From the IMG/VR virus record IMGVR_UViG_3300000929_000001: a stretch of DNA of 38,747 nucleotides; one strand, written 5' to 3'. The notes beneath the pieces are model-generated. The model was not told the origin of the DNA, made no database searches, and worked only from the letters and a program-made list of their open reading frames with translations. The position numbers were made by a program, and so were the translations under genes. Positions 766 through 29,714 of this stretch are shown in pieces. The stretch comes from a virus. Position 1 is the stretch's first letter. Each line of letters begins with the position of its first letter.

Positions 766-1776
766 ATGACGGACGTTCAAATCTGCAACTTGGCCCTCGC
801 TCGACTAGGTGATTCCCGTATCACCACGCTCGCCGATGCGACCGCACAGGCGCAGTATTGCACGCTCTTCTACGTTCAGACCGTAGCCGAACTCCAAGCC
901 GAGTTCGATTGGCAGTTCTGCCGCAAGCAGTACAACCTCATTACCGCCACGACCCCGCTCGGTGGTTACACCTACCAGTACGCTCTACCCAGCGACTACA
1001 TCCGCTCACTTCGTGTCGCCAACATCGACGAGAGCGAGAACTTCGGCCAATGGGAAATCCTTGGCACTAATCTCCAAACCAATTTCGCCTCTCCCGTCAC
1101 GTTGGATTACATCGCCAACATCACGGACGCCAGCAAGTACCCGGCGATCTTCACTGAGCTACTTGCCGTCAAGCTCGCAGGCGTCCTTGCCATGCCACTC
1201 ACTGGCAGTAAAGACCTCTTCAAGCAGACCGTGGAACTCTACATGGCCATGCTCGGCAAGCCTGCTTTCGCCAATGCCACGGAGAAGACGCAAGCGGCAC
1301 GCATCACCGCAGGCACACTGACCGCGACTGAGATTTGCAGACAAGCGATCCTGCGTGTCGGCAGCGCCAATCTCTTTGAACCCTTCGGCGAACCGATGGC
1401 ACTTGCTCAGTCGTTCTACGAGGTCACCCGCGACGAACTCCTCGCCGATTTCCAGTGGTCGTTCACCCGCTCCCAAATCTCCATTACCAAGGATGCCGCT
1501 AATCCCACGACCGGCTACGCCTACCGCTACGCCATCCCCGCAGGGACGGGGCAGATCATCCGGGTCAATAACATCGACGATGCCGACAACACCGCAAAGT
1601 GGGAAGTCGTCGGTGGCTACATCCACACCGATCTAGTGACCCCAATCGTCGTGGACATCACAACCAAGGTCACCGACCCCTCCAAGTTCCCACCCATCTT
1701 CACGCACATCCTCACCGTCACTCTCGCTATCAAGCTCAATAGCATAGTTCAACCGCATAGCGCACCTACCCAATGA
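766..1776 (+). CDS. Head-tail adaptor / tail tubular protein A (T7 gp11-like), two tandem domains
   Basis: 336 aa containing two ~168-aa units. Each starts with I-C-x-x-A-(L/I)-x-R-(L/V)-G (ICNLALARLGDS, ICRQAILRVGSA), followed by (F/W)xW(Q/S)F, then LRV-N-ID..ENFG.WE. This recalls the gp11 N-terminus (INDILASIGEPP). It sits directly after the capsid gene. Confidence 0.65.
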   Translation: MTDVQICNLALARLGDSRITTLADATAQAQYCTLFYVQTVAELQAEFDWQFCRKQYNLITATTPLGGYTYQYALPSDYIRSLRVANIDESENFGQWEILGTNLQTNFASPVTLDYIANITDASKYPAIFTELLAVKLAGVLAMPLTGSKDLFKQTVELYMAMLGKPAFANATEKTQAARITAGTLTATEICRQAILRVGSANLFEPFGEPMALAQSFYEVTRDELLADFQWSFTRSQISITKDAANPTTGYAYRYAIPAGTGQIIRVNNIDDADNTAKWEVVGGYIHTDLVTPIVVDITTKVTDPSKFPPIFTHILTVTLAIKLNSIVQPHSAPTQ

Positions 1777-3419
1777 AATCCGAAGAACTCTTCAAAGAAC
1801 TGCAATTCCTCATGTCCAAGCCTGCCCTCCTTGAGGCAGTCGAGGCAGTCGCCAACTACTCTGGCACTCTCACCACGACCGCAGCGGAAATCATCCGGCA
1901 AGCGGTCATGCGGGTCGGCAGCGCCGACACGTTCAAGCAGCAAGGCCAACCCTTTGTATTTGCGGCCAAATTCTATGGGCAGACGGTCAACGAAATCCTT
2001 TCCGACTACGATTGGCGTTTCGCCCGCATGCAGGCATCGGGCATCACTTCAACCCCTCTTTCATTCGGGTACGATTTCAAATACGCAAGCCCAACTGGGG
2101 CCATCAAGGTTCTGCGCGTCAATGGCATTGATTCCACGGAGAACTTCGGCACATGGGAAGAGGTCGGGGGATTTATCCATACGAATATTGTTTCCCCGAT
2201 TTCGGTGGATTACATCGCCCTTCCTGCCGACACCACCTTCCCGGCGATCTTCATCGAAATGGTCGTTGTGCGTCTCGCCTACAAGCTCTCCATGGCACTT
2301 GGTGCAGGCGAGCAAGCGATGGCGGCAATGAAGGAGATGGAAAGTCTAGTTGCTCGTCCAGCACTGCAACGGGAAATCACTTCTGTCGCAGACGCCTCCT
2401 CATCGAACACCATTGTGAACCGCTCGCAGATTTGCAAGCAGGCCATCATGCGCCTTGGGTCCATCGATACTTTGAAGGGCCAACCGATGGTCTTTGCGAA
2501 TTCTTTCTACGATCACACTCTGGAAGAACTCCTCTCCGATGCGCCTTGGGCCTTCGCGAAAAAACAAGTCACTCTCCTCGTTGGGACCGCACCAACACAA
2601 GGGTACACGAAGAAATACACGCTACCGACCGATGTGATTCAAGTCCTGCGAGTCAACAACATCGACACCACGGAAAACTTTGGACAATGGGAAATCATGG
2701 GGGGATTCCTCCACACGGATATCGGCGCTCCGATCATCATCGACTACACCGCTCATATCACTGACGTGGCTGAATTTCCCGCGCCATTTATCGAGGCGCT
2801 CATCGCTCGCATCGCATCAAAGATTGCTCTGCCGCTGACTGGCAGTGGCGATCTCGTCGCCGCCATGACAACCGTGGCAATGGAGACCATGCAACGCCCC
2901 AGCGTGAAAATTCTGATCGAGAAATCCGCGAAACCCCGCTTGACCACCTCGGCTAACTCGGTCTCGGAAATCTGCCGCCAAGCCATCCTCCGGGTGGGAA
3001 GTGCCGATGTCTTCAAGCCGTATGGCGAGCCGATGTCCATCGCGACATCGCTCTTCGACCAGACTCGCAACGAACTCCTCGCCGACTTCGATTGGCAGTT
3101 TGCACGCTCGCAAACAACCTTGGCAGCAGACGCTGCGCCTCCGGCCTTCGGTTACGCCAAACGATATGCCCTTCCTGTCTCAACTCTCAAGGTGCTTCGC
3201 GTCAATGGCGTCGATGAGGACGAGAACTTTGGCCAATGGGAAATCGTTTCCGGTTTCATCCACACCAACTTCACTCCGACCATCCAACTGGAATCCACCG
3301 CCATCGTTTCCGATGCGACCAAGTTCCCGCCGGTATTCACGAACATGCTCACGGTCACCCTCGCGATGAAGCTTTCCCAACTCATGGAATCTCAACCCAC
3401 CGCAGCGCCTCGCCAATAA
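1773..3419 (+). CDS. Head-tail adaptor (gp11-like), three tandem domains
   Basis: 548 aa. ATGA overlap with the upstream ORF. Three units start at IIRQAVMRVGSAD, ICKQAIMRLGSID and ICRQAILRVGSAD, each with the W.FA and LRVN.ID..ENFG.WE motifs. Confidence 0.65.
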   Translation: MKSEELFKELQFLMSKPALLEAVEAVANYSGTLTTTAAEIIRQAVMRVGSADTFKQQGQPFVFAAKFYGQTVNEILSDYDWRFARMQASGITSTPLSFGYDFKYASPTGAIKVLRVNGIDSTENFGTWEEVGGFIHTNIVSPISVDYIALPADTTFPAIFIEMVVVRLAYKLSMALGAGEQAMAAMKEMESLVARPALQREITSVADASSSNTIVNRSQICKQAIMRLGSIDTLKGQPMVFANSFYDHTLEELLSDAPWAFAKKQVTLLVGTAPTQGYTKKYTLPTDVIQVLRVNNIDTTENFGQWEIMGGFLHTDIGAPIIIDYTAHITDVAEFPAPFIEALIARIASKIALPLTGSGDLVAAMTTVAMETMQRPSVKILIEKSAKPRLTTSANSVSEICRQAILRVGSADVFKPYGEPMSIATSLFDQTRNELLADFDWQFARSQTTLAADAAPPAFGYAKRYALPVSTLKVLRVNGVDEDENFGQWEIVSGFIHTNFTPTIQLESTAIVSDATKFPPVFTNMLTVTLAMKLSQLMESQPTAAPRQ

Positions 3420-4895
3420 ATGAAGTCCGAGGAGTTATTCAAGGAACTCCAGTTCCTCGCGGGCAAGACCTCGCTCAAGAGCGCAGTCGAGACCCGTGCC
3501 TCCTCGCGTCCATCGTCTATCCTCACCGAAGACGAACTCTGTCGGCAAGCCATCCTACGGGTCGGAACTGCCGAGCAGTTCGGCCCCTCCTCGCAGGCGA
3601 TGCTCCTCGCGAAATCGCTCTACCCACAGGTGCGCGATGCCATGCTCCTCGCCGGATCGTGGACGTGGGCCATGAAGAGCGGGACCGTCATCGAGACCCT
3701 GCCTCGCCCAGAGTACAAGTGGAGTTATCGCTACCCGATCCCGTCCGACTGCCTGCGCGTCTTCCGGGTCAATGACTACGATTATTCCACCGGCGATTCC
3801 TCATGGGAGGTCGCAGGCAACTTTGTTCTGAGCAACGCCGATTCCGGCACGCCCGCTTGGGTCGTAGACCGATCCTACGAGGTCGGCAATGCCGTTTCCA
3901 ATAACGGAGTCGTCTACCGATGCCTCGTTGCAGGCACGACCAAACAACCCGGCGTCACCACGGGATGGACAACCGACTGGGATGTCTGGTTAGGCAAGGC
4001 GATCACGCTGGAATACGTCAAGAAGGTCACCGATGTCACCCTCTTCGATTCCCTCTTCATTGACCTGCTCACGGCCAATCTCGCCTCAAAGCTTGCCATT
4101 CCGCTCACTGGCGATGCCAACAAGGCGCTCCTCCTTGCCAAGGACAGCGATTCCCTTGCCAAAAGCCCAGCCATCCGCCGGGACTCGACCGAACGCAAGG
4201 GCCGAATCAAGCCCGCTTGGATGAGCAGCAAGCTCGTCTCCTCCCGCAATGGCGGCGATGGCATCGATGCCTCGCAGTCTTCGGGTGGTGGTCCTGCTGG
4301 TGGCGTCAGCTACCCCGCTCTTCATGTGACTCTCGGCAGTGTCCGCACCGTGACCGGCGCAGAACTTCCCTTTGTGACAAACACGGGTGCAAACGACACC
4401 GCTGTCTTCAACTTCGGTCTCCCGCAGGCAGGCGTCATCGACTCGGCCAAAAACACCTTGTACGGCAACGGGGTCGCCAAGACATTCGCAATCACCGGCC
4501 TCAAGTCCAGCGACCCGAACCACGTCATCGTCTCCATCAACGGGGTCGTACAAGAACCGACCATCGACTACCTCGTCAATCACGGCGCCGGCACGATCAC
4601 GTTTTCCACGGCTATACCTAACCTAGCCAAGGTCGTCGTCGTCGTTCTCGGTCTCTATTCCGCCTCGCAGCGTGTTCCCGACCTGTACGTCCACGCCTTC
4701 GCTACCAATACCGCAGGCACATTCAATTTCTACGGCATGCTGCTCAACTCCGATGTCCCTGCCACCGGATCGCCCGCCGCAGTCGCCAAGTGGACGATCA
4801 CCCGCACGGCAGTGTCGTCCGCAGGATCGATCACCTCCAGCGCCACCGCAACCAACGTGGCTTGGAATAACCGGGAGACATCGACCTACGCATGA
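3420..4895 (+). CDS. Adaptor-domain / fibre-like fusion protein (one gp11-like domain with a CBM5/12-like insert, plus a C-terminal fibre-like region)
   Basis: The ATG immediately follows, in frame, the TAA of the previous ORF. The N-terminal leader MKSEELFKELQFL is identical to that of ORF 1773. Adaptor unit LCRQAILRVGTAE..LRVFRVNDYD. Insert AWVVDRSYEVGNAVSNNGVVYRCL...W. C-terminal pattern YGNGVAKTFAITG...VSINGVVQEPTIDYLVNHGAGTITFS is typical of podovirus fibre N-domains. Confidence 0.6.
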   Translation: MKSEELFKELQFLAGKTSLKSAVETRASSRPSSILTEDELCRQAILRVGTAEQFGPSSQAMLLAKSLYPQVRDAMLLAGSWTWAMKSGTVIETLPRPEYKWSYRYPIPSDCLRVFRVNDYDYSTGDSSWEVAGNFVLSNADSGTPAWVVDRSYEVGNAVSNNGVVYRCLVAGTTKQPGVTTGWTTDWDVWLGKAITLEYVKKVTDVTLFDSLFIDLLTANLASKLAIPLTGDANKALLLAKDSDSLAKSPAIRRDSTERKGRIKPAWMSSKLVSSRNGGDGIDASQSSGGGPAGGVSYPALHVTLGSVRTVTGAELPFVTNTGANDTAVFNFGLPQAGVIDSAKNTLYGNGVAKTFAITGLKSSDPNHVIVSINGVVQEPTIDYLVNHGAGTITFSTAIPNLAKVVVVVLGLYSASQRVPDLYVHAFATNTAGTFNFYGMLLNSDVPATGSPAAVAKWTITRTAVSSAGSITSSATATNVAWNNRETSTYA

Positions 4896-5173: not shown

Positions 5174-6112
5174 ATGGCGAACCCAATCATCAAAATCAAA
5201 CGGGGCAGTGGTCAGCCCTCATCGTTGCAACTCTCTGAGTTGGCTTATGATACACTAAACAAGTCACTTTTCATCGGAACGGCAGAAGGCGTTCTCGCGA
5301 TTGGTGGCGAAAACGTCTTTGCGAAAAAGACTTACGCAGATTCCGCGGTCAGCGCCGAAGCCTCGCTTCGCTCCGCAGCGGACTCGACACTCACCTCCAA
5401 TTTAAATGCAGAAATTTCGCGTGCAACTGCCGCTGAAGGAGTAGTTTCTGCAAATTTGGCAACTGAAATTACCGATAGAACCTCGGCAGTGTCCTCCGTG
5501 ACATCCTCGCTGAATTCGGAAATCACCCGCGCCCAAGCTGCTGAATCCACTCTCACCTCGGCAGTGAGCGCAGAGGTATCGCGTGCGTCCGCCGCTGAGG
5601 TGGCACTCGGAACCCGCATCGATAACGTGTTGAGCAATGTTGACGGCGCAGCCCTCGACAGCTTGACGGAAGTCGTTAGCGCCTTCCAAGCCGCCGATGG
5701 CACTATCAACGGAGCCATCACTAGCCTCGCCGCCAGCGCAGCCAGCAACCTCACAACAGAGGTCAACCGCGCCACTGCCGCCGAAGCGAGCATCATTGCT
5801 TCCGCGACGACCCTCGCCGGTAGAGTGACGACCGCAGAGAGCGACATCAATACCCTCGAAACCGACCTCGCCGCAGAGGTAAGCGCCCGCACAAGTGCTG
5901 TATCTTCAGAGGCTTCCGCAAGGACTTCTGCCGATTCCGCGCTCGGAGTTCGCATCGACAACGTAGTGACCGCTGCAACGGCCCTTACCTCAAGGGTTAC
6001 CGCCGCAGAGGCAGACATCCTCTCAGAGGCTTCCACCCGTGCATCGGCAGTTTCTGCCGTATCGGCTCGCGTGAGCGCCCTTGAATCGACCATCGACGGA
6101 GGCACTTACTAG
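5174..6112 (+). CDS. Tail fibre protein (coiled-coil shaft)
   Basis: 312 aa. The N-terminus IKIKRGSGQPSSLQLSELAYDTLNKSLFIG is a common fibre N-terminal motif. It is followed by long A/S/T-rich heptad-like repeats (ISRATAAE, ITRAQAAE, VSRASAAE, VNRATAAE). Confidence 0.7.
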   Translation: MANPIIKIKRGSGQPSSLQLSELAYDTLNKSLFIGTAEGVLAIGGENVFAKKTYADSAVSAEASLRSAADSTLTSNLNAEISRATAAEGVVSANLATEITDRTSAVSSVTSSLNSEITRAQAAESTLTSAVSAEVSRASAAEVALGTRIDNVLSNVDGAALDSLTEVVSAFQAADGTINGAITSLAASAASNLTTEVNRATAAEASIIASATTLAGRVTTAESDINTLETDLAAEVSARTSAVSSEASARTSADSALGVRIDNVVTAATALTSRVTAAEADILSEASTRASAVSAVSARVSALESTIDGGTY

Positions 6113-8518: not shown

Positions 8519-11500
8519 ATGCCGAAATTCGACTTTTATCCAAGTTTTAACGCCGGTGAAGTCTCACCGATGGTGGACGCCCGCACGTCCTTGGATAAAT
8601 ATCGCTCGGCCTGCCGGACTCTGGAAAACTTCGTGATCATGCCCTACGGTGGGGCCATCCGCCGACCCGGCACGCAGTACATTGGCACGACGAAAACCTC
8701 GGACACGCAGAGTCGTTTGATCGGGTTCAACTTCTCGACCACGACACGCTTCGTGATCGAGCTTGGCGTAGGCTACCTGCGCGTCTGGAATCCCTCTGGT
8801 ACATTGCAGACTATTTCCGGGACAGCAACAGAACTCGCCACTCCGTATGCCGCCGTTGATCTGCGCGAAATCCAATACTGCCAGATCAACGACATCATGT
8901 ACTTCGCCCACGCGAACTACCCGCCTCGCAAACTCACTCGCGTGTCGGATACCAACTGGACGTTCGCGGAGGTCAAATTTGAGTACCCTCCGCTACTCGA
9001 TAGCTCGGAGAATCAGACGAAGTTGTATGCAAGTATGGGCATTTGGGGTTATAATTCTGCAAATAAATATTTAAAAGACGCATCGATTATACCCCCGCAA
9101 TGGCCACATATTGAAACTACTAAGACCGCCCTTCCAAATGCTTTAGCGGTATTGGTGGATGGGGTCTACTCTTTAGTATATGGTGGTAGCTACACGCATA
9201 CAAACAACACTTTAATAATAGATGGGCAGACTGCTTATGTAGGTATGTTGGTTCATGTTACAAAGGAATCCGCATCAGAAAATGGAGTATACATTGTTAC
9301 TCAACTTGGGACGAATTTGCAACCGTGGATTCTAAAGGAAACCTCCGCTTACAATGTTAATTATACTGCGGGCGACTTCATTTATATTAATCACGCCCTC
9401 ACTGGAGTGACTCAATCTAGAGTGTATAAGTGTACGGCATCTACAACTGGTCCGGTATTTGATGCGACAAAATGGACTGAGATTTCATCCACCTATACTT
9501 TTCGCGCACTAAAAGATTTTACTGCTACCACATTTAAAGCCGATATTGCCGCTGGCAATATTTCATCGCTCCCATTGGCATCCAACGAAATGGGAGAATT
9601 CATAACACAAGGTACGTTTCCATTCTCTGGGTATGTCGGATCGCAGATCGAACTCAAGTGGCAGAATTCCAACCTCTACAAGCAGATCGAAATCGTCGGC
9701 AACTTTGAATCCGACATCTTGCTTGTCGATGGGGCATGGGACTTTGAGACCTCTGGCACATGGGGAGCAATGGTCCAAATCCTGCGTGTGCCTGCCGAGG
9801 TCTTGCAGGCGGGAGTCAGTGTTGGCCTTGCGTACCCAGTTAACACCACGACCATAGAGGTCTATCAACCCAATCACGGCTACGATCTCGGCGACCGAGT
9901 GTCATTCAAAGGCGATTATAAACAGACAAACACCGCGATTTCTTCGGTTACCACGAACACCTATCGGTACTTCATTTCGCCAGCGACTACGCTCACTGGC
10001 TACCGTGATGTTTTTCCGGAGAATCTGAGTCAAATGGAAATCGTCCGCGAATACATCGTGGACAATGACAAAAATATCATCACAAGTGGAACGGAAGATA
10101 GTCTCTGTGGTCTCAAAATCGTTATCACCAACGCGCAAAAAATCGCCACCACATGGTCAATGTCAACTCCCTACAAAGTCGGCGACTTCGTCTACGATTC
10201 TGGCAAGACCTATTATTGCATGCTGGAGCATAAAGCCGCCAACGATCTGTATGACAATACGAAGTGGAAGGAGATCACAAGCGATGGTGAAGTTCCCTCA
10301 TTTTCCGCTACCCCAGCGTACGCTAACAAATTAGAGAACTGGAATTCTACTGACACTTACGCTTATGGAGACTATGTCCTCGATTCCGGCCAAACCAACA
10401 CAACCGGGGGATTGTGGCAGGCGAAAAAAGCGGTTCCAAAAAATACACCACTGTATCCAAATGACTATTGGGAAATGATGGATACAAGTCACTGGTTACC
10501 AAGTCAAGCTTATTTAGGAGGTAGCTACGTCAAGGTGCAAAACACGGATAAATATTTTATGGCACGGTATGACCTACCCGCAGCCAACAAAATTGATACC
10601 AACAAATTCACCACGCAACAGGTTCCAAATGCTCGCATCGATAGCTCAACCAATATCATCGGCGGGGTCGCGACCATCACCGCAGACAGCACTATCAACG
10701 TAGACAAGTGGCTCGGACCTCTCGCTGCCACTGGTGCAAAAACGAAATTCTGGCAGTACGGAGCCTTCAACGCGACGAGCGGTTACCCACGCTCGGTGTG
10801 CCTGCATGAGCAACGTCTCTGCTTCGGCGGAACCAAAGCGCAACCGAACACGATTTGGTGCAGTGCCATTGGCGACTTTGAAAACTTTGAACTCGGAGTC
10901 AATGCCAGCGATGCCGTGCAATTCACGCTCTCGGCCTCGGAAGGGAACCGCATCAACTGGATGTTCTCGCAATCCGAAATGCTCGTCGGAACATCCGGCG
11001 ACGAGTGGACCATTGGCGCAGCGGATTCCGCCTCGGCGCTCTCGGCCACGAACGTCAAGACCCGCAGGCAGGCTTCGTATGGATCGAAATACATGCGAGC
11101 CGCGATGGTCAACGATGTCCTGCTTTTCGTCCAACGCAACGGACGCAAGGTGCGCGAACTCGTCTACGAACTCAATAAGGACGGTTGGGTCGCTCCCGAT
11201 CTGACACTCCTAGCGGAACACATAACGGTCGGCGAGATCGTCGAGGTCGCGTACCAACAACAACCGGACGCCATCCTCTGGTGCGTGCGCGGAGACGGCA
11301 CGCTCATCGGCATGACCTACGAGCGAGACCAGAAGGTCGTGGGATGGCATCGGCACACCATCGGCGACAATGCTGATGTCGAGTCGGTCGCCACAATCTA
11401 CGGAAATGGCACGGAGGACGAGGTCTGGATGGTCGTGAAGCGCACCGTGACTGGCTCAACCTACCGCACCATCGAGCGGTTCCCTCTGCTGTGGCGAACC

Positions 11501-12013
11501 GCTTTCGACGACCAAACAACCACCTCATACCGCTACCTCGACGGGCATGTGGCATTTGCCTCTGGCGCTGCCAATCGCAGCGTAGCAGGTCTATATTACC
11601 TCAATGGCAAGACGGTCACCATCGTGCAAAATGGAGTACTCACCGGCACTGCTATCGTGTCTGGAGGAGCGGTCACCGTTCCCCAAGCCGCCGCAGGCTA
11701 TGTCGGACTGCCCTACATCTCGACCCTCACGCCCATGAAACTCGACATGGACCTAGAAGACGGGTCATCCCAAGGCCGCAAGAAGCGCATCCACAAGGTC
11801 GTCGTCCGCACGCTCAAAAGCCAAGGCGGCGAAGTGCGGGTCAATGCCGGGCAGTGGTACGACCTCGCCAGCACCCTCACCACGGGAGATCAAAAAATCT
11901 TGACGGCAGGCACGTTTGGATTCGACGCCGATGTTTCTGTCCAGCAAAGTGACCCCTATCCAATGTGTATTCTCGCCATCGAACCTGTCTGGGACACCTA
12001 CGGAAATGAATAG
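8519..12013 (+). CDS. Large tail protein, probable nozzle / tail tubular protein B analogue, with inserted CBM5/12-like repeats
   Basis: 1164 aa. It occupies the position expected for a gp12 analogue, before the internal virion proteins. N-terminus FNAGEVSPMVDARTSLDKYRSACRTLENF...GGAIRRPGTQY. The central AT-rich segment carries four W/Y..Y..GD(F/Y)V...W motifs. Confidence 0.5.
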   Translation: MPKFDFYPSFNAGEVSPMVDARTSLDKYRSACRTLENFVIMPYGGAIRRPGTQYIGTTKTSDTQSRLIGFNFSTTTRFVIELGVGYLRVWNPSGTLQTISGTATELATPYAAVDLREIQYCQINDIMYFAHANYPPRKLTRVSDTNWTFAEVKFEYPPLLDSSENQTKLYASMGIWGYNSANKYLKDASIIPPQWPHIETTKTALPNALAVLVDGVYSLVYGGSYTHTNNTLIIDGQTAYVGMLVHVTKESASENGVYIVTQLGTNLQPWILKETSAYNVNYTAGDFIYINHALTGVTQSRVYKCTASTTGPVFDATKWTEISSTYTFRALKDFTATTFKADIAAGNISSLPLASNEMGEFITQGTFPFSGYVGSQIELKWQNSNLYKQIEIVGNFESDILLVDGAWDFETSGTWGAMVQILRVPAEVLQAGVSVGLAYPVNTTTIEVYQPNHGYDLGDRVSFKGDYKQTNTAISSVTTNTYRYFISPATTLTGYRDVFPENLSQMEIVREYIVDNDKNIITSGTEDSLCGLKIVITNAQKIATTWSMSTPYKVGDFVYDSGKTYYCMLEHKAANDLYDNTKWKEITSDGEVPSFSATPAYANKLENWNSTDTYAYGDYVLDSGQTNTTGGLWQAKKAVPKNTPLYPNDYWEMMDTSHWLPSQAYLGGSYVKVQNTDKYFMARYDLPAANKIDTNKFTTQQVPNARIDSSTNIIGGVATITADSTINVDKWLGPLAATGAKTKFWQYGAFNATSGYPRSVCLHEQRLCFGGTKAQPNTIWCSAIGDFENFELGVNASDAVQFTLSASEGNRINWMFSQSEMLVGTSGDEWTIGAADSASALSATNVKTRRQASYGSKYMRAAMVNDVLLFVQRNGRKVRELVYELNKDGWVAPDLTLLAEHITVGEIVEVAYQQQPDAILWCVRGDGTLIGMTYERDQKVVGWHRHTIGDNADVESVATIYGNGTEDEVWMVVKRTVTGSTYRTIERFPLLWRTAFDDQTTTSYRYLDGHVAFASGAANRSVAGLYYLNGKTVTIVQNGVLTGTAIVSGGAVTVPQAAAGYVGLPYISTLTPMKLDMDLEDGSSQGRKKRIHKVVVRTLKSQGGEVRVNAGQWYDLASTLTTGDQKILTAGTFGFDADVSVQQSDPYPMCILAIEPVWDTYGNE

Positions 12014-12428
12014 CATTCACATGAGACCCTACCTCGATTCCGACTATGAGATGCTCTCGCAGTGGTGGCACGCACATGGGAAGCAACGCCGACCACAGCA
12101 AATGCTTCCCAAATGTGGAGTCGTGTGCGAACTCGATGGGAAGCCTGTCAGCGCCCTCTTCCTTCACATGGACAACTCCTGCGGAATGTGCATGGCAGAC
12201 CACGCTGTTTCTGCTCCAAGATTAAATTTAAAGACAGCAAGGATTGCATTTCAGAACTGCGTAGATTGCATAAAGAAAATCGCTCACGATCTTGGTTACC
12301 ACACTATAGCAATCACGACTTACGCTGGCATTGCTCGCATTTTGAAAAAGAGGGGATTTGTTGAGATCAGTGCAGACCAAGTTGCTCTAATAAACTCCAC
12401 CAAAGAGTTTGAGGAGGATTACCAATGA
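12006..12428 (+). CDS. GNAT-fold acetyltransferase-like protein
   Basis: About 140 aa. The pattern V-x-P...(helix)...A..LGY..I.I......A..ILKKRGF resembles the GNAT core. The start could be 12006 or 12021. It overlaps the stop of the upstream gene. Confidence 0.4.
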   Translation: MNSIHMRPYLDSDYEMLSQWWHAHGKQRRPQQMLPKCGVVCELDGKPVSALFLHMDNSCGMCMADHAVSAPRLNLKTARIAFQNCVDCIKKIAHDLGYHTIAITTYAGIARILKKRGFVEISADQVALINSTKEFEEDYQ

Positions 12429-13273
12429 CAGGAACTGAAGGTCTTTGGGTTTATGCTGCTGTATCCGCTGCCGCCGCAGTCGCTGGGGCTGGCGTCTCGA
12501 TCTATTCTGCCAACGAGCAGTCTCGCGCCCAAGCCGCAATGGCCGAGTACAACCGCATGGCTGCGGAGCAGAATGCCTCATGGCAGCGCCTCGCCGGGGA
12601 ACGTGCCGCGCAGGCCGAACAATTTAACGCACAGATAGCCGGATTCAACGCAGACGCGCAGGGTCAGCAGGCGCAGATGAACCGGCAGATGCTCGGTCAG
12701 CAAAGCGATCAACTGCGAGCGCAGGCGACCGCGCAAGACGCGCAAGCCCGCGACCAAGCAGGCCGCATCCGCGCCGAGAAGGATCGCATCCTCGGTCTCC
12801 AACGCAGCCAGTTCGCCGCAGGCGGCGTCACCCCGGAAGGCTCGCCTCTTGCTGTTTTGGCTGATACCGCCAACCTCTACGAAATGCAGGTCAACGACAC
12901 GAAGCTCCTCGCCAATCTGGAGACCAACAAGAAACGCCGCGAGGCCGGACTCAACGACATCATCGGCGACTTCAATTTCAACGCAGATACCTTCGCCTCG
13001 GTGATGAGTTCCAAGGCCGCAAAGTTGAGCTTGGACGATGCGAAGTTCGCCGAGGAGGCCGCAGGCGCAGGCTACAGAATCAATCTTCGCCAAGCCGACA
13101 TCGAACAACGCGCAGGTATGTCCCAATCGCGTGGCACTCTGATGGCAGGCTACGGGTCGGCACTCAGCAACATATCCCAAGCCGGGTACTACGGATCGCA
13201 GGCCGCAGGCGGGTATTCGTCCGGTGGTGGAAACGGCAAAGGTAAAGACACATCAAAAGGGACAGCCAAATAA
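12425..13273 (+). CDS. Internal virion / ejection protein (gp14-like position)
   Basis: 282 aa with an N-terminal hydrophobic helix (WVYAAVSAAAAVAGAGVSIY), then a Q/A-rich coiled coil. ATGA overlap. Confidence 0.5.
   Translation: MTGTEGLWVYAAVSAAAAVAGAGVSIYSANEQSRAQAAMAEYNRMAAEQNASWQRLAGERAAQAEQFNAQIAGFNADAQGQQAQMNRQMLGQQSDQLRAQATAQDAQARDQAGRIRAEKDRILGLQRSQFAAGGVTPEGSPLAVLADTANLYEMQVNDTKLLANLETNKKRREAGLNDIIGDFNFNADTFASVMSSKAAKLSLDDAKFAEEAAGAGYRINLRQADIEQRAGMSQSRGTLMAGYGSALSNISQAGYYGSQAAGGYSSGGGNGKGKDTSKGTAK
12854..12867 (+). repeat. Motif copy (variant GTTTTGGCTGATAC)
   Basis: Inside ORF 12425, read as V-L-A-D-T. Confidence 0.6.
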
Positions 13274-13275
13274 CC

Positions 13276-15312
13276 ATGCCATCCATCCGACTCGCCGATA
13301 TTCCAAATGCAGGCCCGCAAGGTGTCGCTCCCGACAGCGGCATCATCGCGCCTCGCGTAGCCCAACTCGGCGGGTCCGCAGCCCTTGACCCCAACGCCAT
13401 GCGCGGGGTCGCCAAGGACATGCAGCTGGAGAAGTACAACCTCAACGCATTTGCGGGCGAGGCCATCGGTCTTGGCAAGATCGGAGACGCCATGAGCGAT
13501 GTGGCTACCCTCGGCATCCGCTTCGCGACGAAGATGGCCGATGCGAAGGACGATGCCGACTTTGAGAAGGGACGCAACATCCTCGCCGCTGCCGCGCAGC
13601 AGCAGGAGAACGACCACCAGAATCTCTCGCCCGAAGAGTGGGGAAGCAACTTTGACAAACTCAACAAGGGGGTCCAAACAGATATGGAAAAGCTGGGCTT
13701 CTCCAAGTCTGGCCGAGCCAAGTTTGAGGCGTACCGTTCAAACTGGGCGAATCAAACAGCACTCAAAATCACTGGCATGGCCAACAAGGAAAAGATCGAG
13801 GGATACAAGCAGGATGCCAAGATCGGAGTCGAACGCGAACTTGCGCTAGGCAACGAGCAGGGAGCCTTTGAGATCGTCAACAAGTTCAGAACGAACGGGA
13901 CGCTCGGCGAGCGAGATGCCAAAGATTTAGAGGGTCATATAATAGTTCGCTCAATCAACATCGCCGAGCAACGCCAGACCGATGTGGTAACTGCGGATAC
14001 TTTAGCAGATTGGACCAAGGCCAAGGCCAACCTCGATCAATACAAGGTCGAGAAGGTGGATGAGAAAACCCCGGACGCTAGAATCGATGGACCCTACGGA
14101 GAGATGCGTGCGACCAAGGTGAAGCGACTCATTGCCGAGGTGGACCGCCAAGGTAAATATGCCGAGGCGACCAACTACAACACGCTCGCCCAAGCCATCG
14201 ACAGCAACACGCCGGTGCGACTCAAGAACGGCAGCGAGATTCTCATTACGGATGAAAGCATGCTCGGCCAAGCTACTGCCGACATCAAGGTCACCGATCC
14301 TTCCGCACTCAAGCGCCTTCGCCTGCTTGTCTCCGACAATGTCCCATACCGCCCGGACGCTGTCTCTGCCGTGAATGCGCGTCTCGCAAACTACGATCCC
14401 TCGACCGATCCGAAGATGACCGAGTTCAACGCGATCTCAAATGATATCGTCTCCAATGTTCCAAAAAACCTACGTAGCGTCATGAACAACGATCTCACCT
14501 CGGCATGGACGAAATTCAGCAAGGATGGGACACTCAACCCAAAGACCAAGTGGCAGGGGGAAATGATCTCGCAGATCAATGAACTCGGCAAAAATGGCGT
14601 CCTCGGTGACATGGGAACTGAGAAAGATAGCAATGATCTCTTCACGGGCAAAATCAAAGACCAGACAAAATACGACACTTACTGGAACAAGGTTTACAAT
14701 CTTCAAGGCGAGATGCGTGACTGGTTTTCTGATCCTGCTAACAAAGGCAAATCTCCCGAAGATGCCCGCGCTTATCTGAATGGTCGGATCAGAGGCCCAG
14801 TCCAAGATGCGGCCATGAAAGATGGGGCGCGGCTCAAGCCAGAATCAATGAGGTTTTCAGTGCCGGTCGGCACAGGCGGACTCTATAATGCTCCAGTTCC
14901 AAGCCCAACTCCAACAAATCCAACTGACCTCATTAAAAAGAGTCGTGAGATTAAAGCCGAAGGCAAAGTTACGAGCTACAATTTCAAAGGCGATGCCTAC
15001 TCGGATTCTAATTCGCGTGCCGGTATCGGGGCATGGAACAACAAGCTCACCGAAACATCGCTCGCCATCTCACCCGATATCGAAAGCAAATTCAAAGCCG
15101 CAGGAATTGGAAAGGGCGACCCCGTGGAACTCACTCTTGCGGATGGGTCCACCGTCATTCGCAACTGGGATGACCGCACCATGCAGGACAAGCAAGCCAT
15201 CAGCAAATATGGCAAACCTCTCACTGGTCGCTTCGACTTCCATTCTCCGGGAGGAAAACAAAAGAATGATGGCATGGCCGTCCTGTCCTTCCGTAAAGCA
15301 CCCAACGCTTAA
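13276..15312 (+). CDS. Internal virion protein with C-terminal 3D/RlpA-like (double-psi beta-barrel) putative peptidoglycan-lytic domain
   Basis: 678 aa. The C-terminus reads VTSYNFKGDAYSDSNSRAGIGAWNNKLTETSLAISPDIESKF...GDPVELTLADGSTVIRNWDDRT...GRFDFHSPGG. It sits in the gp15-like position. Confidence 0.45.
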   Translation: MPSIRLADIPNAGPQGVAPDSGIIAPRVAQLGGSAALDPNAMRGVAKDMQLEKYNLNAFAGEAIGLGKIGDAMSDVATLGIRFATKMADAKDDADFEKGRNILAAAAQQQENDHQNLSPEEWGSNFDKLNKGVQTDMEKLGFSKSGRAKFEAYRSNWANQTALKITGMANKEKIEGYKQDAKIGVERELALGNEQGAFEIVNKFRTNGTLGERDAKDLEGHIIVRSINIAEQRQTDVVTADTLADWTKAKANLDQYKVEKVDEKTPDARIDGPYGEMRATKVKRLIAEVDRQGKYAEATNYNTLAQAIDSNTPVRLKNGSEILITDESMLGQATADIKVTDPSALKRLRLLVSDNVPYRPDAVSAVNARLANYDPSTDPKMTEFNAISNDIVSNVPKNLRSVMNNDLTSAWTKFSKDGTLNPKTKWQGEMISQINELGKNGVLGDMGTEKDSNDLFTGKIKDQTKYDTYWNKVYNLQGEMRDWFSDPANKGKSPEDARAYLNGRIRGPVQDAAMKDGARLKPESMRFSVPVGTGGLYNAPVPSPTPTNPTDLIKKSREIKAEGKVTSYNFKGDAYSDSNSRAGIGAWNNKLTETSLAISPDIESKFKAAGIGKGDPVELTLADGSTVIRNWDDRTMQDKQAISKYGKPLTGRFDFHSPGGKQKNDGMAVLSFRKAPNA

Positions 15313-15318
15313 TTTTAC

Positions 15319-18300
15319 ATGATCGAAATCAACGACGACGAGACAGCTTCACGCATCTACACCGAAATCGACAATGCTACAGGAGATGAGCGGATGCAGA
15401 TGGCAGATGCTCTTGGAAAATACGGAGAGAAAAAACTACAAGAGGAATACAACACCAATGATGAGCATTACTCAAAAATGTTCATGGATGATGCCTACAA
15501 CCAAGAATACAAAGGCCGATCCACGGCCATCAAAGAGGCAGTCAATCCAGATGAGACGTGGCAGCGCGGGACGATTCAAGGCTACCTTTCCCACCGACTA
15601 GGACGAGATGTCACCGCTGACAATTACGAGATCGAGAGAGATGCATTTTCGATGTCCGCTTTCGGTCAGAAGAATATCAACGATGGTCAACTTTTTGATA
15701 ATATCAAAGGCGACTACGAGTGGCAGCAAAAGAAGACTGAGGCACTCAACGACCTCCACATGCAGTCGGTCGGCAAGGCGATCAATGATTCCCAGCTAGG
15801 TCAGAATCGCCCCTTCGTGGACGGCATGACCGATGTCTTCAATACATGGCAGCAAAAGTATCCAGAGCTTGTGGACGGAACGAATGATGCCGCCTTCCTC
15901 TCGCAGGGATACAAGCTCTACTACGACACGATCAATGACCTGGACTCCGTGCGCCCGCAGGCCGCGCAGACGCTCACCACGCTGGAGAAGTTCACCAAAG
16001 GCGAGTCCGATCCAGAGGCGCTGCAAACCCTCTCCAATACGCTCATCGGAGCATCTCCCGAAGAACGTCAGAAAATCTACAAGTATGTGACCCTTGCCGC
16101 AGAGGCAGGCCAAATCGACCTCGCCGGGCTAGATCAATTTGCCCTCAACATGGGGCAAGCCTTCACCCGTGGGTTTGATTTCGTCCCGCAGGGTTCGCTC
16201 CAGATGCAGGAGGCTGGCGTCAACAACTGGTTGGAGTCCATTCGCAACGGAACGCAAATCTGGGTTCCAGTCGATGGCGACCTTTCCAAAGCAGAAGTCG
16301 GCAATGCTCCCGCAGGGGTCGAATCCGATGCATGGCGGCAGGCTACCGTCCCGGAGGCCGAGACCCTCATCCAGAGCGGTCAGAATGTGCGTGAGGGATT
16401 CAAGGTCGTGCGTGAACTCCGCAATGTGGCCAAGACCGGCGTCGATCCGATACGCCCCGTGCTGGAGGAGAATTCCTTCTGGGGAACCGCCGAGCGTGGC
16501 GCATACGGATTGGCAGGCAGCATCGCTCCCATGGCGGCGACTGCCGTGAATCCGTTCCTCGGCGCTCTCGCCTACCAAGCAACCGAGTACGACCGCATCA
16601 TGCTGGAGAACTCGGACATCAACCCGCAGTTCGCCCAAGGTCTCGCGCTAGTCGAGGGTGTCGCAAATGCCGCCATCGACCGGGTGCAGTTGAAAAGCCT
16701 TTCTGGCAAGCTTCCCATGTTTGGCCGATACCTCGACCGGATCAAAAGCGATGGCATCCGCCGCACCGTCAAGATCGGAGCTAATGTCGTGGAGCAGAAC
16801 TTGCAGGAGGGCGCTCAAGACCTCATCGCCCCCGTGCTGGAGACCGCCGTTGCCGCCCTCCGCGAGGACATGCCCGACAAGGATTTCTCCTCCCTCATGG
16901 AAGGTTGGGCAGGCCAGCGGGCCGAGACCTTCTTCGCCACCCTCCCGCTCGCACTCATCGGTGGCGGTGTCGCCTCCTTCCGCGATATCAAGCACCCGTC
17001 TGCCGAACTCAACGCGACCAAGCTTCGCATGGCGGGATTCAGCCCAGAGCAAACCACCTTCATCCAGCGAGCCGAGAACCCGGAAGAGTACGATGCTCGC
17101 ATCCAGATGGAGTTTCCGAACCGCACTCCAGAGAACATTCAAGCTGGCGAGGAACTCATCCAGCAATCGATTTCGGAGGCACAAACCCCGCCAGAGAATA
17201 GCGCCAAGCTGGAAGAGACCGTGGCCAAGGACGGCACTCGCATGTGGACCGTCACCACGCCGGACGGCAAGGAACTCCTCCAGACCAAAGACCAGCAGGC
17301 CGCACTCGTAGCTATCCGCGAGCATAACGGGGCGCAGATTCTCAATAAGCAGTTCGAGACGCAATACGAACCAGAAGAACTCCGGCAGATGATCACTGAC
17401 CTGTCCACCCAATGGACATCGGAGAAACCCGGCAATACGCTCGCCATGGAATCCGAAGGCATGAACGCCCAGCAAGAGCTTGAGCAACTCCAAGCCGCAG
17501 GCAACGCATCGCAGATTCAAGAACTCCACAACCGGATCGCGAATTCCCCGATGAAGGACACGCCTTACGAGCAGATCAACATCCTCGGCAAAGCCAGCGT
17601 GGACGATGTCGCGGAGATGGTTTTCGGGTCACTCATCACGATTAACCCCAACACCCGCCCGGAGAACCTCCGCGAGGAAATCCACCACATCGGCGTCAAG
17701 GTTGCGATCAAGAATGGCAGCGTCACACTCGACACCTTGCGCGGGTGGCTCGACGCGACCGAAAAAGCCCTGCCGGGAACCTTTCAGAACCTTGTCCGAG
17801 ATTCGGAAGGTGACATCGTCGAATCGCTTTCCCAAGTCCAAGCTGCTTACGAGAACGGCAAAATCAACGCCGACGAGGAAACCAAGCTCCCGCCTTCGTT
17901 CATTGGTTACATCAAAAACATGATGCGAACTTTCGCCGAGGTCATGCGCCGAGCAGTCGCCCTGCGCGGAGCATTTAAGGACGGCGCTCTGCCTGCGGAA
18001 TACGAATCCTTCCTCGCCGACTCGGTCGGCCTCAACCAGCAGGCACGGGTCGATACCGCAAGCCAGCGTGTCGCCGGGGATGTTTTGGCTGATACCGATG
18101 GCAAGGTGGTTTTCTCCCGCGCCCAAGCTCAGACCAACGCAGGCGAAATCCGCGCCAGCAACGCCACGATCACCGGCCCCGCGAACTACAGCATTGCCGC
18201 ACACCACGGCACGCCGCACAAGGTGGACAAGTTCAGCACCGCAAAGATCGGCACAGGCGAAGGAGCGCAGGCTTATGGCTGGGGGCTTTATTTTGCTGAA

Positions 18301-27562: not shown

Positions 27563-27799
27563 ATGAAACTAGCAACATGCAACTGCGCCGAAGTGAAAGA
27601 TGAAAACGGCAACAAATTGCCAGAAGTAGTCGGTCACAATTGTGACTACATCCGCGAAAGAAACAAACACCTCACTGAGGCTTCCAGCTTCGCTCAAATC
27701 GAACTCGATAAGACGGCACTGGAGACGCCAACCGAGAGGTCAGCATTCTTCAATAAAACATTCTCGGCAAAAATGACCGAGCTTTGTGCAGGCATCTAA
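27563..27799 (+). CDS. Hypothetical early protein (78 aa)
   Basis: Internal ATG of track ORF 27458..27799, preceded by an A/C-rich leader that is repeated before the next gene. Confidence 0.45.
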   Translation: MKLATCNCAEVKDENGNKLPEVVGHNCDYIRERNKHLTEASSFAQIELDKTALETPTERSAFFNKTFSAKMTELCAGI

Positions 27800-27870
27800 T
27801 GAAAACGACCCCGAAGGACGGCAATCCAACGGGGTCAAGTCAAAACCACAAGAAAAGCAGTAATAACAAA

Positions 27871-28692
27871 ATGAGTAATACACAACTGACACAACAAGTC
27901 AACACACAAGTCGCACTTGGCGACATGCAGGTGATGGCCAACGCCATCGTGAAATCGGGTCTCTTCGGAATGAAGACAGCGGACCAAGCATTGGCGCTGA
28001 TGATCGTGGCGACTGCCGAGGGGCGTCATCCGGGATCGGTGGCCTCTGATTATCATATCATTCAAGGCAGAGCGAGCCTCAAGTCCGACTCGATGCTGGC
28101 GCGTTTCCAGCAATCGGGCGGGCGTGTCGAGTGGCACGACCACACAAACGAGAAAGTCTCCGCGACCTTCAGCCACCCTGCGGGCGGATCGCTCCGCATC
28201 GACTGGGACATGGCACGGGCCAAGGCGGCTGGGCTGGGCGGTAAGGACAACTGGCGCTCGTATCCACGGCAGATGCTGCGGGCGCGGGTGATCTCGGAGG
28301 GGGTCCGTGCGACATTCCCTGCGGTACTCAACGGGATGTATACGCCGGAGGAGGTTGGCGAGTTTGATGCGCCTAGAACAGCGCCACGCTCGGTGAAGGC
28401 CGAGCCGGTGGTGGTAGAGCAGGTCATCGAAGCGCCGGTGGTAGTCGAGCCTGTTGCAGTTCCTGCGACACCTGTCATTGAGGCCGATGTGGTATCAATT
28501 GATACCTCATGGGCAGACGAGTTGGAGAAGCGCATTTTTGAGCATGAGCCGAAGGTGAATGCGTTTCTGCTGGCCAAGGGTCAGATCGCCGAGGGGCAGA
28601 CCTTCCGCGACATCGCGGATGAGGGCTACCGCAACCGGGTGCTGTCGAACACGCCACGTTTCCTCGATGCCGTTTTGAAGGAGGTCGCATAA
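27871..28692 (+). CDS. recT: RecT/Red-beta-family single-strand annealing protein
   Basis: ADQALALMIVATAEGRHPGSVASDYHIIQGR and NWRSYPRQMLRARVISEGVRATFP parallel Red-beta DAQFIALLIVANQYGLNP...IY and WQSHPKRMLRHKAMIQCARLAFG. The start is set at 27871 because 27800-27870 repeats the leader of the preceding gene. Confidence 0.6.
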   Translation: MSNTQLTQQVNTQVALGDMQVMANAIVKSGLFGMKTADQALALMIVATAEGRHPGSVASDYHIIQGRASLKSDSMLARFQQSGGRVEWHDHTNEKVSATFSHPAGGSLRIDWDMARAKAAGLGGKDNWRSYPRQMLRARVISEGVRATFPAVLNGMYTPEEVGEFDAPRTAPRSVKAEPVVVEQVIEAPVVVEPVAVPATPVIEADVVSIDTSWADELEKRIFEHEPKVNAFLLAKGQIAEGQTFRDIADEGYRNRVLSNTPRFLDAVLKEVA

Positions 28693-29714
28693 TGAGCGCG
28701 ACGATTCGACACTCCGCTCTGGACAAGCTCGATCTCTGTCCTTGCTTTGAAAGTAACCCCGTCTCTGGCCCTGCGGCAGAGCGTGGGACTCGTATGGACT
28801 TGGCCTTCCGTGGTCTTCTCATGGGCGAGCGCCAGCCATTCTTGGCGCTATCGGATGAGGAGCAGGACTCGGTGATGTGGGCGGTACAGACGGCCAAGGA
28901 CGTTGCATGTTACCATGAGATCATCTCAGATGAGGCGCTTCTCAAGGTGGTCACACCGCACCTCTCCCATGTTGGGACTGAGGATGCGCGGGTGGAGGCG
29001 CTTTGCTTGAGCCTGGACCTAAAGTCGGGCCAGCCACGCTCGTATCATAAGCAGCAGGCGGCATACGCCCTTGGCAACATGGCTCGCACGTTCACCGACA
29101 CTTGGGAGTGCGTGTTGCTGTTTTGTGACCAGCAGGAGGTTGTCCACTACCGCTACACCTACGAGGAGGCCGAGCAATGGGTGAAGGGGATCGTGGATTC
29201 TGCGAACGATCCAAACAAGCAACCCTGCGCGAATGAGTACTGCGCGTGGTGTGTGAAGAAAGACCGATGCCAACAGGTCGTCGAGCCGGTCGTGCAGACT
29301 CTGGCGGCAGTGGAGTCGGAGGTCTCATTGGCCGAGGTACGGCAGAACGTCCTCGCCGATCCAACTCGATTGGCGAAGGTGATGAAGGCGGCATCAATCT
29401 TTGAGAAGGAGTTTCTCAAGCCACTCAAGGATGCGGCAAAGCAACTCCTGCTCGATGGCGGGTCGCTACCCGGATGGAAGCTACAGCACCAGACCGGCAG
29501 CGAGTACTTCGACCGCATCGCAATCGTGTCTGCTGCGGTTGCCGGGAAGAGCGGACTCGATGACCTTGTGACCGCGATGGGCGGTGACATGGGCGGCAAG
29601 GCGTACCGCGAGTGGCATGAGAAGATGCGCTTGCCAGTGCAGGAACAACATGCCCAACGCAAGGGCGACATCGTAAAGCTCGTTGAGGACAAGAAAGCGA
29701 GGGCGCTGAAATGA
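28692..29714 (+). CDS. PD-(D/E)xK exonuclease with Cas4-like Cys cluster
   Basis: 340 aa. N-terminal CPC, LSLDLKSGQPRSYHKQQAAYALG (D-x-K...Q..Y), and a C-terminal CANEYCAWCVKKDRC. It is adjacent to the annealase. Confidence 0.55.
   Translation: MSATIRHSALDKLDLCPCFESNPVSGPAAERGTRMDLAFRGLLMGERQPFLALSDEEQDSVMWAVQTAKDVACYHEIISDEALLKVVTPHLSHVGTEDARVEALCLSLDLKSGQPRSYHKQQAAYALGNMARTFTDTWECVLLFCDQQEVVHYRYTYEEAEQWVKGIVDSANDPNKQPCANEYCAWCVKKDRCQQVVEPVVQTLAAVESEVSLAEVRQNVLADPTRLAKVMKAASIFEKEFLKPLKDAAKQLLLDGGSLPGWKLQHQTGSEYFDRIAIVSAAVAGKSGLDDLVTAMGGDMGGKAYREWHEKMRLPVQEQHAQRKGDIVKLVEDKKARALK

Follow-up and report, generated by a model that had tools for sequence, protein, structure and literature searches.

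A giant polyvalent protein with three predicted enzyme cassettes between carrier scaffolds in the third ejection-protein slot of a podovirus-like phage genome

The IMG/VR virus record IMGVR_UViG_3300000929_000001, a stretch of 38,747 nucleotides referred to here as the window, contains, as its largest gene, that for a protein of 2,828 aa, which is read as one uninterrupted open reading frame (ORF) in the gene position of a third ejection protein. The giant protein is composed of two long terminal scaffolds that enclose three cargo cassettes, two of them related to the ART-PolyVal family and one to the Kinase-PolyVal family, and a short peptide motif, termed the delimiter, marks each of the four boundaries (Table 1). 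This layout agrees with a first-pass annotation made from the letters of the DNA alone, and every peptide quoted there is found in the giant protein at the place it was assigned. An identical protein (P0001) is encoded on four contigs, the longest of 38,949 bp. The giant protein as a whole retrieves nothing significant from the PDB sequences and its gene has no megablast match among 50,697 phage records, while tblastn against the phage records returns matches to the cargo domains only and none on the scaffolds.

Table 1 Features of the giant gene and its neighbours in the window, with the regional coverage of the giant protein among 112 homologs
Feature	Position	Strand	Residues or length	Remarks	Homologs covering the region
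Giant ORF, polyvalent protein in the third ejection-protein slot	15319..23805	+	2,828 aa	uninterrupted	
N scaffold	15319..18183	+	aa 1-955	conserved in ~86 homologs	~86/112 (residues 1 to ~940)
Delimiter 1	18184..18198	+	aa 956-960	NYSIA	
Cargo cassette 1 (domain 1)	18184..19011	+	aa 956-1231	divergent ART-PolyVal subfamily with helical insert	~51/112 (~956-1231)
Delimiter 2	19012..19026	+	aa 1232-1236	NYSIG	
Cargo cassette 2 (domain 2)	19012..20022	+	aa 1232-1568	canonical ART-PolyVal (PF18760) with large insert	~13/112 (~1232-1568)
Delimiter 3	20023..20037	+	aa 1569-1573	NYSIG	
Cargo cassette 3 (domain 3, kinase)	20023..20712	+	aa 1569-1798	Kinase-PolyVal (PF18762)	4-9/112 (~1569-1798)
Delimiter 4	20713..20727	+	aa 1799-1803	SYSIA; Ser is TCC, not AGC	
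C scaffold	20713..23802	+	aa 1799-2828		~85/112 (~1800-2828)
Tubular-tail-B-like tail protein	8519..12013	+	1,164 aa	PHROG 376, E 5.5e-178	
Internal virion protein	12425..13273	+	282 aa	PHROG 418, E 1e-11	
ORF in gp15-like position	13276..15312	+	678 aa	no family match in any library	
Lysis cassette	23831..24761	+		holin-like ORF, 82-aa ORF, CHAP endolysin	
Holin-like ORF	23831-24007	+	~57 aa	two hydrophobic segments	
82-aa ORF	24004-24252	+	82 aa	N-terminal membrane anchor ending LTSC (lipobox-like)	
CHAP endolysin	24249-24761	+			
Integrase	25063..26094	+		PHROG 1, E 5e-29	

Domain 2 matches the Pfam ART-PolyVal profile with 79.3 bits (cut-off 31.2) in two stretches that are split by the insert, in agreement with its original assignment as an ADP-ribosyltransferase (ART), and contains the peptides VVYHGTQRPDRVGDRF (aa 1266-1281), GPMAYFTSDPEVASSYA (aa 1289-1305) and GGVRHEVWIPFNETQVKS (aa 1536-1553). 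The catalytic triad had been read as the H-Y-E layout of diphtheria toxin, of which the third residue fails. H1269 (19123-19125) is conserved in at least 90% of the domain 2 family and Y1293 (19195-19197) is Y or F in most members, but at the position of E1541 (19939-19941, in VRHEVW) members of the family have E, Q, D, T, K or N, and cassettes 78-89% identical to cassette 2 have Q; E1541 is therefore very unlikely to be catalytic. The invariant acid is instead D1526 (19894-19896), the Asp of a G-[YF]-D-G-[IV] motif that reads G-Y-D-G-I in the giant protein. ART-PolyVal is described as an H-Y-D family of the Tox-ART-HYD2 clade that is related to PARPs and to the cholix and diphtheria toxins in the searched passages of the paper that defined it (Iyer, Burroughs, Anand, de Souza and Aravind 2017, J Bacteriol, PMC5512222), and judging from the alignment H1269, Y1293 and D1526 fit this layout on strands 1, 2 and 5. 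The conserved Glu on the fifth core strand that characterises the diphtheria toxin and PARP triad is accordingly found in neither ART domain, being variable in the family of domain 2 and missing from domain 1. PARPs without this Glu retain mono-ADP-ribosyltransferase activity, and a domain that lacks it need not be inactive.

Domain 1, which includes the peptides AAHHGTPHKVDKF (aa 960-972), GTGEGAQAYGWGLYFAEEKKVATGY (aa 978-1002) and YNYVAFDENLIRI (aa 1197-1209), scores 26.4 bits against PF18760, below the gathering cut-off of 31.2, and aligns to profile positions 10-50 only. Its homologs number 5,713 proteins at E<=1e-3, mostly stand-alone proteins of 300-490 aa, and PF18760 is already assigned to 100 of the 120 best of them. 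Furthermore, hhalign matches the family profiles of domains 1 and 2 with 95.3% probability over 199 columns, pairing HHGT with YHGT, GLYFAE with AYFTSD and GNLYTAEIDV with AVYPVYLSI, as well as the C-terminal strands. Domain 1 is therefore filed as a divergent subfamily rather than a core member, in which form its earlier recognition as a second ART is borne out. The hand alignment that had placed an Asn in domain 1 opposite the Glu of domain 2 is one column off, since hhalign pairs E1541 with Y1197 and N1198 with V1542. All residues invariant in the subfamily are kept, namely H963 (18205-18207), Y991 (18289-18291) and D1186 (18874-18876); at the column of D1526 this subfamily has an invariant Pro, and its own invariant Asp, D1186 of Y-L-D-G-G, is situated five residues on. 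The AlphaFold 2 (AF2) model of domain 1 has a predicted local distance difference test (pLDDT) score of 87.5. Neither the domain 1 nor the domain 2 family profile retrieves anything significant from the PDB sequences, where cholix toxin appears at E 0.4. One stand-alone homolog is gp5 of phage phiGT1, which shares 35% identity with domain 1, is encoded between the portal and scaffold genes and was identified by mass spectrometry of purified virions above the contamination level set by the authors of that study. A further invariant feature of the domain 1 subfamily is a glycine-rich loop, KIGTGEGAQAYGxGLYFA, located between strands 1 and 2 (aa 978-994; 18250-18300), which is not present in the canonical ART-PolyVal domain and may serve as an extra nucleotide-binding element.

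Domain 3 matches the Pfam Kinase-PolyVal profile with 42.4 bits (cut-off 27) and contains the peptide VTDLHPGNLIVDATGKLVPIDV (aa 1766-1787). It carries the ATP-binding K1660 of strand 3 (20296-20298), the catalytic-loop residues D1768 (20620-20622) and N1773 and the metal-binding D1786 (20674-20676), all intact, together with two family-specific residues, E1648 before strand 2 and Q1717 within the N-lobe's final strand. E1648, K1660, D1768, N1773 and D1786 are kept in two divergent Kinase-PolyVal subfamilies, and Q1717 is seen in this sequence. The kinase-like character proposed for this domain is thereby sustained, and profile searches have returned both of the folds that were originally suggested; the absence of ART or kinase matches that would have spoken against the annotation did not occur. 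Domain 3 has no room for a kinase C-lobe because the next delimiter follows 13 residues past D1786. Both the loss of the C-lobe and the family-specific Glu and Gln are published traits of Kinase-PolyVal, a truncated type of kinase that is found mainly in prophages of the Verrucomicrobia-Chlamydia group and of Bacteroidetes, according to the passages searched (Iyer et al. 2017).

The delimiter [NS]YSI[GA] occurs exactly four times in the six frames of the window, in each case within the giant protein and at the four domain junctions that the first-pass annotation had described, whereas only about 0.01 NYSI would be expected by chance in a protein of this size. Among relatives the cassettes are bounded by [NS][YF]SI[GA]. 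The logo reads G-[DA]-T-N-Y-S-I-G, with nearly all of the information in the four core residues and little in the flanks. The Ser is encoded by AGC in 27, TCC in 20, TCG in 4, TCA in 3 and AGT in 1 of 55 independent instances, and since both Ser codon families are used the motif appears to be kept by selection on the protein and not as a DNA signal; a recombination signal at the DNA level as the sole explanation of the motif is thereby ruled out. In AF2 models the delimiters lie in low-confidence linkers, except for the Ile of delimiter 1, which starts strand 1 of domain 1. The motif extends to remote relatives in altered form. A protein from an Akkermansiaceae prophage has the core as SSFSVIG, SSFSVIA and NTFSVIS, the only matches to [YF]S[ILV] in its 3,033 aa, and many of 120 distant full-length representatives contain SFSIG, TFSIA, AYSLG, AFSLG and the like, concentrated in the middle of the protein, compared to an expectation of 0.06. 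Polyvalent proteins that do not have these scaffolds carry a related DI[RT][YF]S after their ART-PolyVal domains. No description of the delimiter is found in the searchable literature or in the searched passages of Iyer et al. (2017). Candidate roles are a cleavage site, a boundary for unfolding and refolding, or a tolerated joint.

Relatives were sought among 5.8 billion proteins, which yielded ~90 giant relatives of 2,000-3,200 aa. Only 27-56% of the query is shared by them, with an identity that in some cases reaches 97%. As the regional coverage in Table 1 illustrates, it is the scaffolds that most of the 112 homologs have in common. Two or more copies of [NS]YSI are present in 54 relatives, always in the middle of the protein, and when these proteins are cut at the motif, 126 cassettes of 28 types result, which are used in combinatorial orders. 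Named types include ART-PolyVal, Kinase-PolyVal, ParB_N-like, MuF_C, GNAT-like, LPD3, LPD13 and DUF7178, of which ART-PolyVal, Kinase-PolyVal, LPD3, LPD13 and MuF_C are Pfam families that stem from the work of Iyer et al. (2017). At least ten recurrent types (T4, T5, T7, T11, T13, T14, T18, T20, T21 and T22, among proteins P0002-P0076) have no Pfam match, including one of 671 aa that is found in seven proteins, and are candidates for injected effectors of new kinds. By a rough estimate the space between the scaffolds varies from ~70 to 1,250 aa.

At the DNA level the boundaries of the homology blocks shared with close relatives lie no more than a few codons from the motifs, which shows that near-identical phages exchange cassettes at the delimiters. 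The relative L001 is 94% identical to the window gene up to aa 927, then matches only aa 1226-1573 and resumes at aa 1796; the block in L002 likewise ends at aa 1573, at delimiter 3, and in L005 a block of 96.5% identity starts exactly at delimiter 4 (nt 5395 of the gene). The GC content at third codon positions (GC3) of cassettes 1 and 3 is 0.52 compared to 0.64-0.70 in the scaffolds, as would fit an import of both cassettes from another genomic background.

Neither scaffold has a significant match to Pfam or PHROG, which for the N scaffold includes the absence of any Pfam match to an SLT or lysozyme domain. In the AF2 prediction (pLDDT 68) the C scaffold is built of alpha-helices alone, among them very long ones, and it contains a stretch rich in K, R, E and A at aa 1810-2000. 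Its predicted fold retrieves generic coiled-coil matches only from the PDB, while in BFVD it matches 57 predicted viral structures at E<=1e-3 with TM-scores of 0.4-0.6 and 11-29% identity. All 57 are C-terminal pieces of giant phage proteins that are named for differing cargo (ART-PolyVal, LPD, MuF_C, nuclease, type I restriction enzyme, N-acetyltransferase and sugar kinase), and one of them, from the podovirus Tenacibaculum phage Gundel_1, is labelled 'structural protein'. An exhaustive sequence search finds the C-scaffold module in 1,198 cluster representatives, always at the C-terminus, and full-length proteins of this kind measure ~1,800-3,900 aa. The 1,198 relatives and the fold matches with differing cargo indicate that the carrier is widespread and its cargo variable.

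The gene order around the giant ORF, which runs from tail tube genes over an internal virion protein to the giant ORF and lysis, makes the term 'ejection slot' correct as a statement of gene order. A 100-aa ORF sits between the tubular-tail-B-like gene and the 282-aa ORF. Of the two internal virion proteins that had been placed upstream, the 282-aa ORF is supported by its PHROG match and the 678-aa ORF has no profile support; the lysis cassette follows directly downstream, as had been noted, with the holin-like ORF, the membrane-anchored 82-aa ORF and the CHAP endolysin in turn. The rest of the genome includes genes for a terminase, a T7-type portal, a major capsid protein and replication, and the presence of an integrase indicates a temperate phage. 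Positions 1-23 of the window recur at 38725-38747, and the major capsid gene spans the junction (starting near 38,5xx and continuing into 12-695); the 23-nt terminal repeat therefore points to a complete circular assembly of ~38.7 kb.

Three consecutive ORFs (766-1776, 1773-3419 and 3420-4895) contain the tubular-tail-A-like domain PHROG 394 (E 8e-69, 2e-68 and 9e-28) and look like a triplicated tubeA, judging from these profile matches; phiGT1 is reported with two tubular-tail-A copies. A RecT-like annealing protein and an exonuclease are encoded next to each other at 27784-29714 as a recombination pair of the Red/RecET type, which could promote the exchange of cassettes in the giant gene through short homologies. 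Between the portal and capsid genes lies a 286-aa ORF (37380-38240) with a strong match to PHROG 3742, a group of unknown function, a weak PHROG 'protease' match (E 6e-7) and no Pfam match. It could encode a scaffolding protein or a maturation protease, the former being more likely from its position, and the latter possibility is of relevance to a cleavage of the delimiters.

The host of the phage probably belongs to the Verrucomicrobiota, judging from the contigs on which related sequences are found. Relatives of the C scaffold occur on metagenome-assembled genome (MAG) contigs of Chthoniobacter (97% identity) and an unclassified Verrucomicrobia bacterium, and on an 89-kb contig of Akkermansiaceae UBA5020. 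On the latter (L048, 3653-12754) the homolog of 3,033 aa, whose delimiters read [ST]FSVI[GAS], is preceded by ORFs of 257 and 629 aa in an arrangement like that of the window, and the locus looks like an integrated prophage. A host of this phylum fits the published occurrence of the truncated kinase mainly in prophages of the Verrucomicrobia-Chlamydia group and of Bacteroidetes.

Taken together, the giant protein is probably a polyvalent virion protein of a temperate, podovirus-like phage of ~38.7 kb, in which carrier scaffolds would deliver three predicted enzyme cassettes by injection to modify the host. It is proposed that the protein would be packaged in the capsid core beside the two internal virion proteins that precede it and would be expelled through the tail at infection, and that its scaffolds would keep it associated with the DNA channel across the envelope. 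The cargo would be presented to the host cytoplasm and may use NAD+ and ATP on host macromolecules before the phage genes are expressed, for the purpose of takeover or counter-defence. Packaging and ejection are suggested by the position of the gene and by the precedents of phiGT1 gp5 and the virion RNA polymerase (vRNAP) of phage N4.

Several observations weigh against this interpretation. Weak hydrophobic segments (Kyte-Doolittle < 1.45) are located in the N scaffold at aa 398-416 and 536-554 and in the C scaffold at aa 2494-2512 and 2683-2701; they flank the cargo on both sides, and a naive topology could leave the cargo in the periplasm without NAD+ or ATP. The description of the protein as gp16-like holds for its position but not for homology: comparisons of the scaffolds and upstream ORFs by hhalign gave less than 1% for T7 gp13-16 and at most 1% for the N-terminal and C-terminal domains (NTD and CTD) of N4 vRNAP, and the scaffolds have no detectable similarity in sequence or fold to the solved ejection proteins in the PDB. 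The positional analogy to both systems is kept. D1526 and D1186 are no more than candidates for the third catalytic residue of the two ART domains. A Foldseek search of the PDB with the AF2 model of domain 1 gave the catalytic fragment of PARP3 as the top match at an E-value of 0.26, which is not significant and speaks neither for nor against the ART fold, and it is probably the helical insert that breaks the alignment. The searchable literature contains no experimental characterisation of any ART-PolyVal or Kinase-PolyVal protein, and 'ADP-ribosyltransferase' and 'kinase' are thus profile-based predictions.

One alternative concerns the delimiters, which might be the processing sites of a polyprotein. 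In such a scheme, the sites of the form (small)-[YF]-S-(aliphatic) would be cut during head maturation or after ejection and the enzymes would be freed from membrane-bound scaffolds to act as soluble effectors. The delimiter has the properties of a short linear element under selection at the protein level (Ser codons 27 AGC, 27 TCN and one AGT), flanks cassettes of unrelated folds and falls into low-confidence linkers in the AF2 models. Relatives of only ~45% identity still have it in the form FSVI, FSIA or YSLG, and the related DI[RT][YF]S is located behind the ART-PolyVal domains of polyvalent proteins that are unrelated. A need for the processing of polyvalent proteins is argued in the searched passages of Iyer et al. 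(2017), and the P1 proteins DdrB and DarA are cleaved. The metallopeptidase (MPTase) domains proposed there for this task are not found in the giant protein, however, nor is an HExxH or serine-protease motif, and no protease able to cut the delimiters has been identified in the phage, in which the 286-aa ORF has only its weak PHROG hit; T7-like heads have no maturation protease. In addition, delimiter 1 overlaps strand 1 of domain 1 so that cutting could damage the fold, and N4 vRNAP is packaged and active uncleaved. Cleavage at the delimiters is on balance doubtful.

Equally, it is unlikely that the delimiter has no protein function of its own. It would then be an inherited linker end that survives since only recombinants joined at the boundary are viable, and its real role would be that of a patch of DNA homology, possibly used in recombination driven by RecT and the exonuclease. 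The genes for such a pair are present in the phage, the motifs coincide with the ends of the homology blocks, three of the four junctions in the window have AAC TAC AG(C/T) ATT G in common, and longer linkers such as QPVSTDT-NYSIG and PAPATGAT-NYSIG are shared. However, the codons of the motif vary freely, including a switch of Ser between AGY and TCN that is impossible by one synonymous step, the flanks carry little information compared to the four core residues, and the core survives in lineages in which the surrounding DNA can no longer be aligned. Together, these three features point to selection at the level of the amino acids.

It is highly improbable that the cargo consists of inactive binding modules, or of toxins or factors for lysogenic conversion that the prophage expresses, and that the giant protein is a purely structural component of the ejection apparatus or tail: the HYD2 ART family also occurs in polymorphic toxins and could serve as a toxin or virulence factor during lysogeny (Iyer et al. 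2022), the phage is temperate by its integrase, and the replacement of E1541 by Q in close relatives might suggest decay if E1541 were catalytic, but the giant gene lies within the late structural operon and has no secretion signal, all family-invariant residues are kept in all three domains, the variability of E1541 throughout the family makes its loss uninformative with regard to decay, and a stand-alone homolog is borne by the virion of phiGT1.

A bolder and tentative extension of the proposed injection of the cargo, which is at present not likely to be correct, is that the delimiter acts as a signal, in the simplest case as a site of cleavage or release, and that in a large group of phages, most of them uncultured, the third ejection protein is a plug-and-play polyprotein whose constant carrier first delivers and then frees whatever enzymes are inserted between the delimiters. 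If this were true, the ~10 cassette types without a Pfam match would form a catalogue of unknown injected counter-defence enzymes. The delimiter offers a simple rule for splitting hundreds of giant phage proteins into candidate effectors, many of which belong to no known family, and the anatomy of this lineage provides a testable hypothesis on processing or refolding after passage through the tail. The layout of carrier and cargo is also a natural design for the loading of foreign enzymes into phage particles.

By its sequence the giant protein is a polyvalent protein and thus of a known kind, and there is no novelty in its ART and kinase content. In phages and conjugative elements, polyvalent proteins combine disparate effector domains in one giant polypeptide, the ART being the commonest and the kinase of the truncated type; their genes are located among virion genes and show extensive mosaicism, and the proteins are predicted to be injected with the DNA (Iyer et al. 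2017). The giant protein accordingly unites two domains of the ART-PolyVal type and one Kinase-PolyVal domain in 2,828 aa and is encoded among the virion and late genes of a complete phage genome. The idea raised in the first-pass annotation, that many effectors enter as a single polypeptide, is also the rationale given for polyvalent proteins by Iyer et al. (2017). The searched passages of that paper do not contain conserved N- and C-terminal carrier scaffolds, a junction motif or a link to the third ejection slot in a T7-like gene order. The new elements are the carrier of N and C scaffolds with an internal cargo bay, the delimiter at the protein level at which cassettes are exchanged, the C-terminal module conserved in fold across many giant phage proteins and the probable Verrucomicrobial host.

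T7 gp16 (internal virion protein D) resembles the giant protein in being the last and largest of a trio of internal virion proteins encoded after the tail tube genes, and in its largely alpha-helical structure with hydrophobic segments between the N-terminal and C-terminal parts (PMC8954989). The known proteins of the gp16 type are 609-1,337 aa long (Swanson et al. 2022, PMC8954989), which makes the giant protein more than twice as long as the largest of them; it differs further in having no lytic transglycosylase domain and no detected similarity in sequence or fold. N4 vRNAP (gp50), a giant of 3,500 aa, is likewise the third product of a three-gene ejection operon in the place of T7 gp16, and it is packaged in few copies, ejected and active inside the host (PMC13434306; PMC10925440). 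It has been studied experimentally and is organised into an NTD that associates with the membrane, an enzyme in the centre and a CTD of large size, a logic that the giant protein follows. Its cargo is an RNA polymerase and not an ART or kinase, however, its NTD and CTD have no detectable homology to the scaffolds, and neither cassette shuffling nor a delimiter motif is known for it. The giant protein thus connects polyvalent proteins, a class defined by computation, with the ejectosome, which has been studied by structure.

With regard to the predicted activities, T4 Alt and the T7 gp0.7 kinase modify the host RNA polymerase and translation factors by ADP-ribosylation and phosphorylation, respectively, at the start of infection. 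Alt is packaged in the head and injected from the capsid but belongs to the R-S-E clade of ARTs, unlike the domains of the giant protein, and gp0.7 is made after entry and not injected; both are separate small proteins and not parts of one carrier. A parallel to the modular architecture is provided by the polymorphic toxins, such as CdiA and Rhs, in which a conserved delivery scaffold is combined with hypervariable enzymatic modules that are exchanged by recombination at a short junction peptide (VENN or PxxxxDPxGL), as is the case here. In polymorphic toxins only the C-terminal tip varies and orphan cassettes are found downstream, whereas the window contains no orphan cassettes and the giant protein varies in several internal cassettes between two conserved ends.

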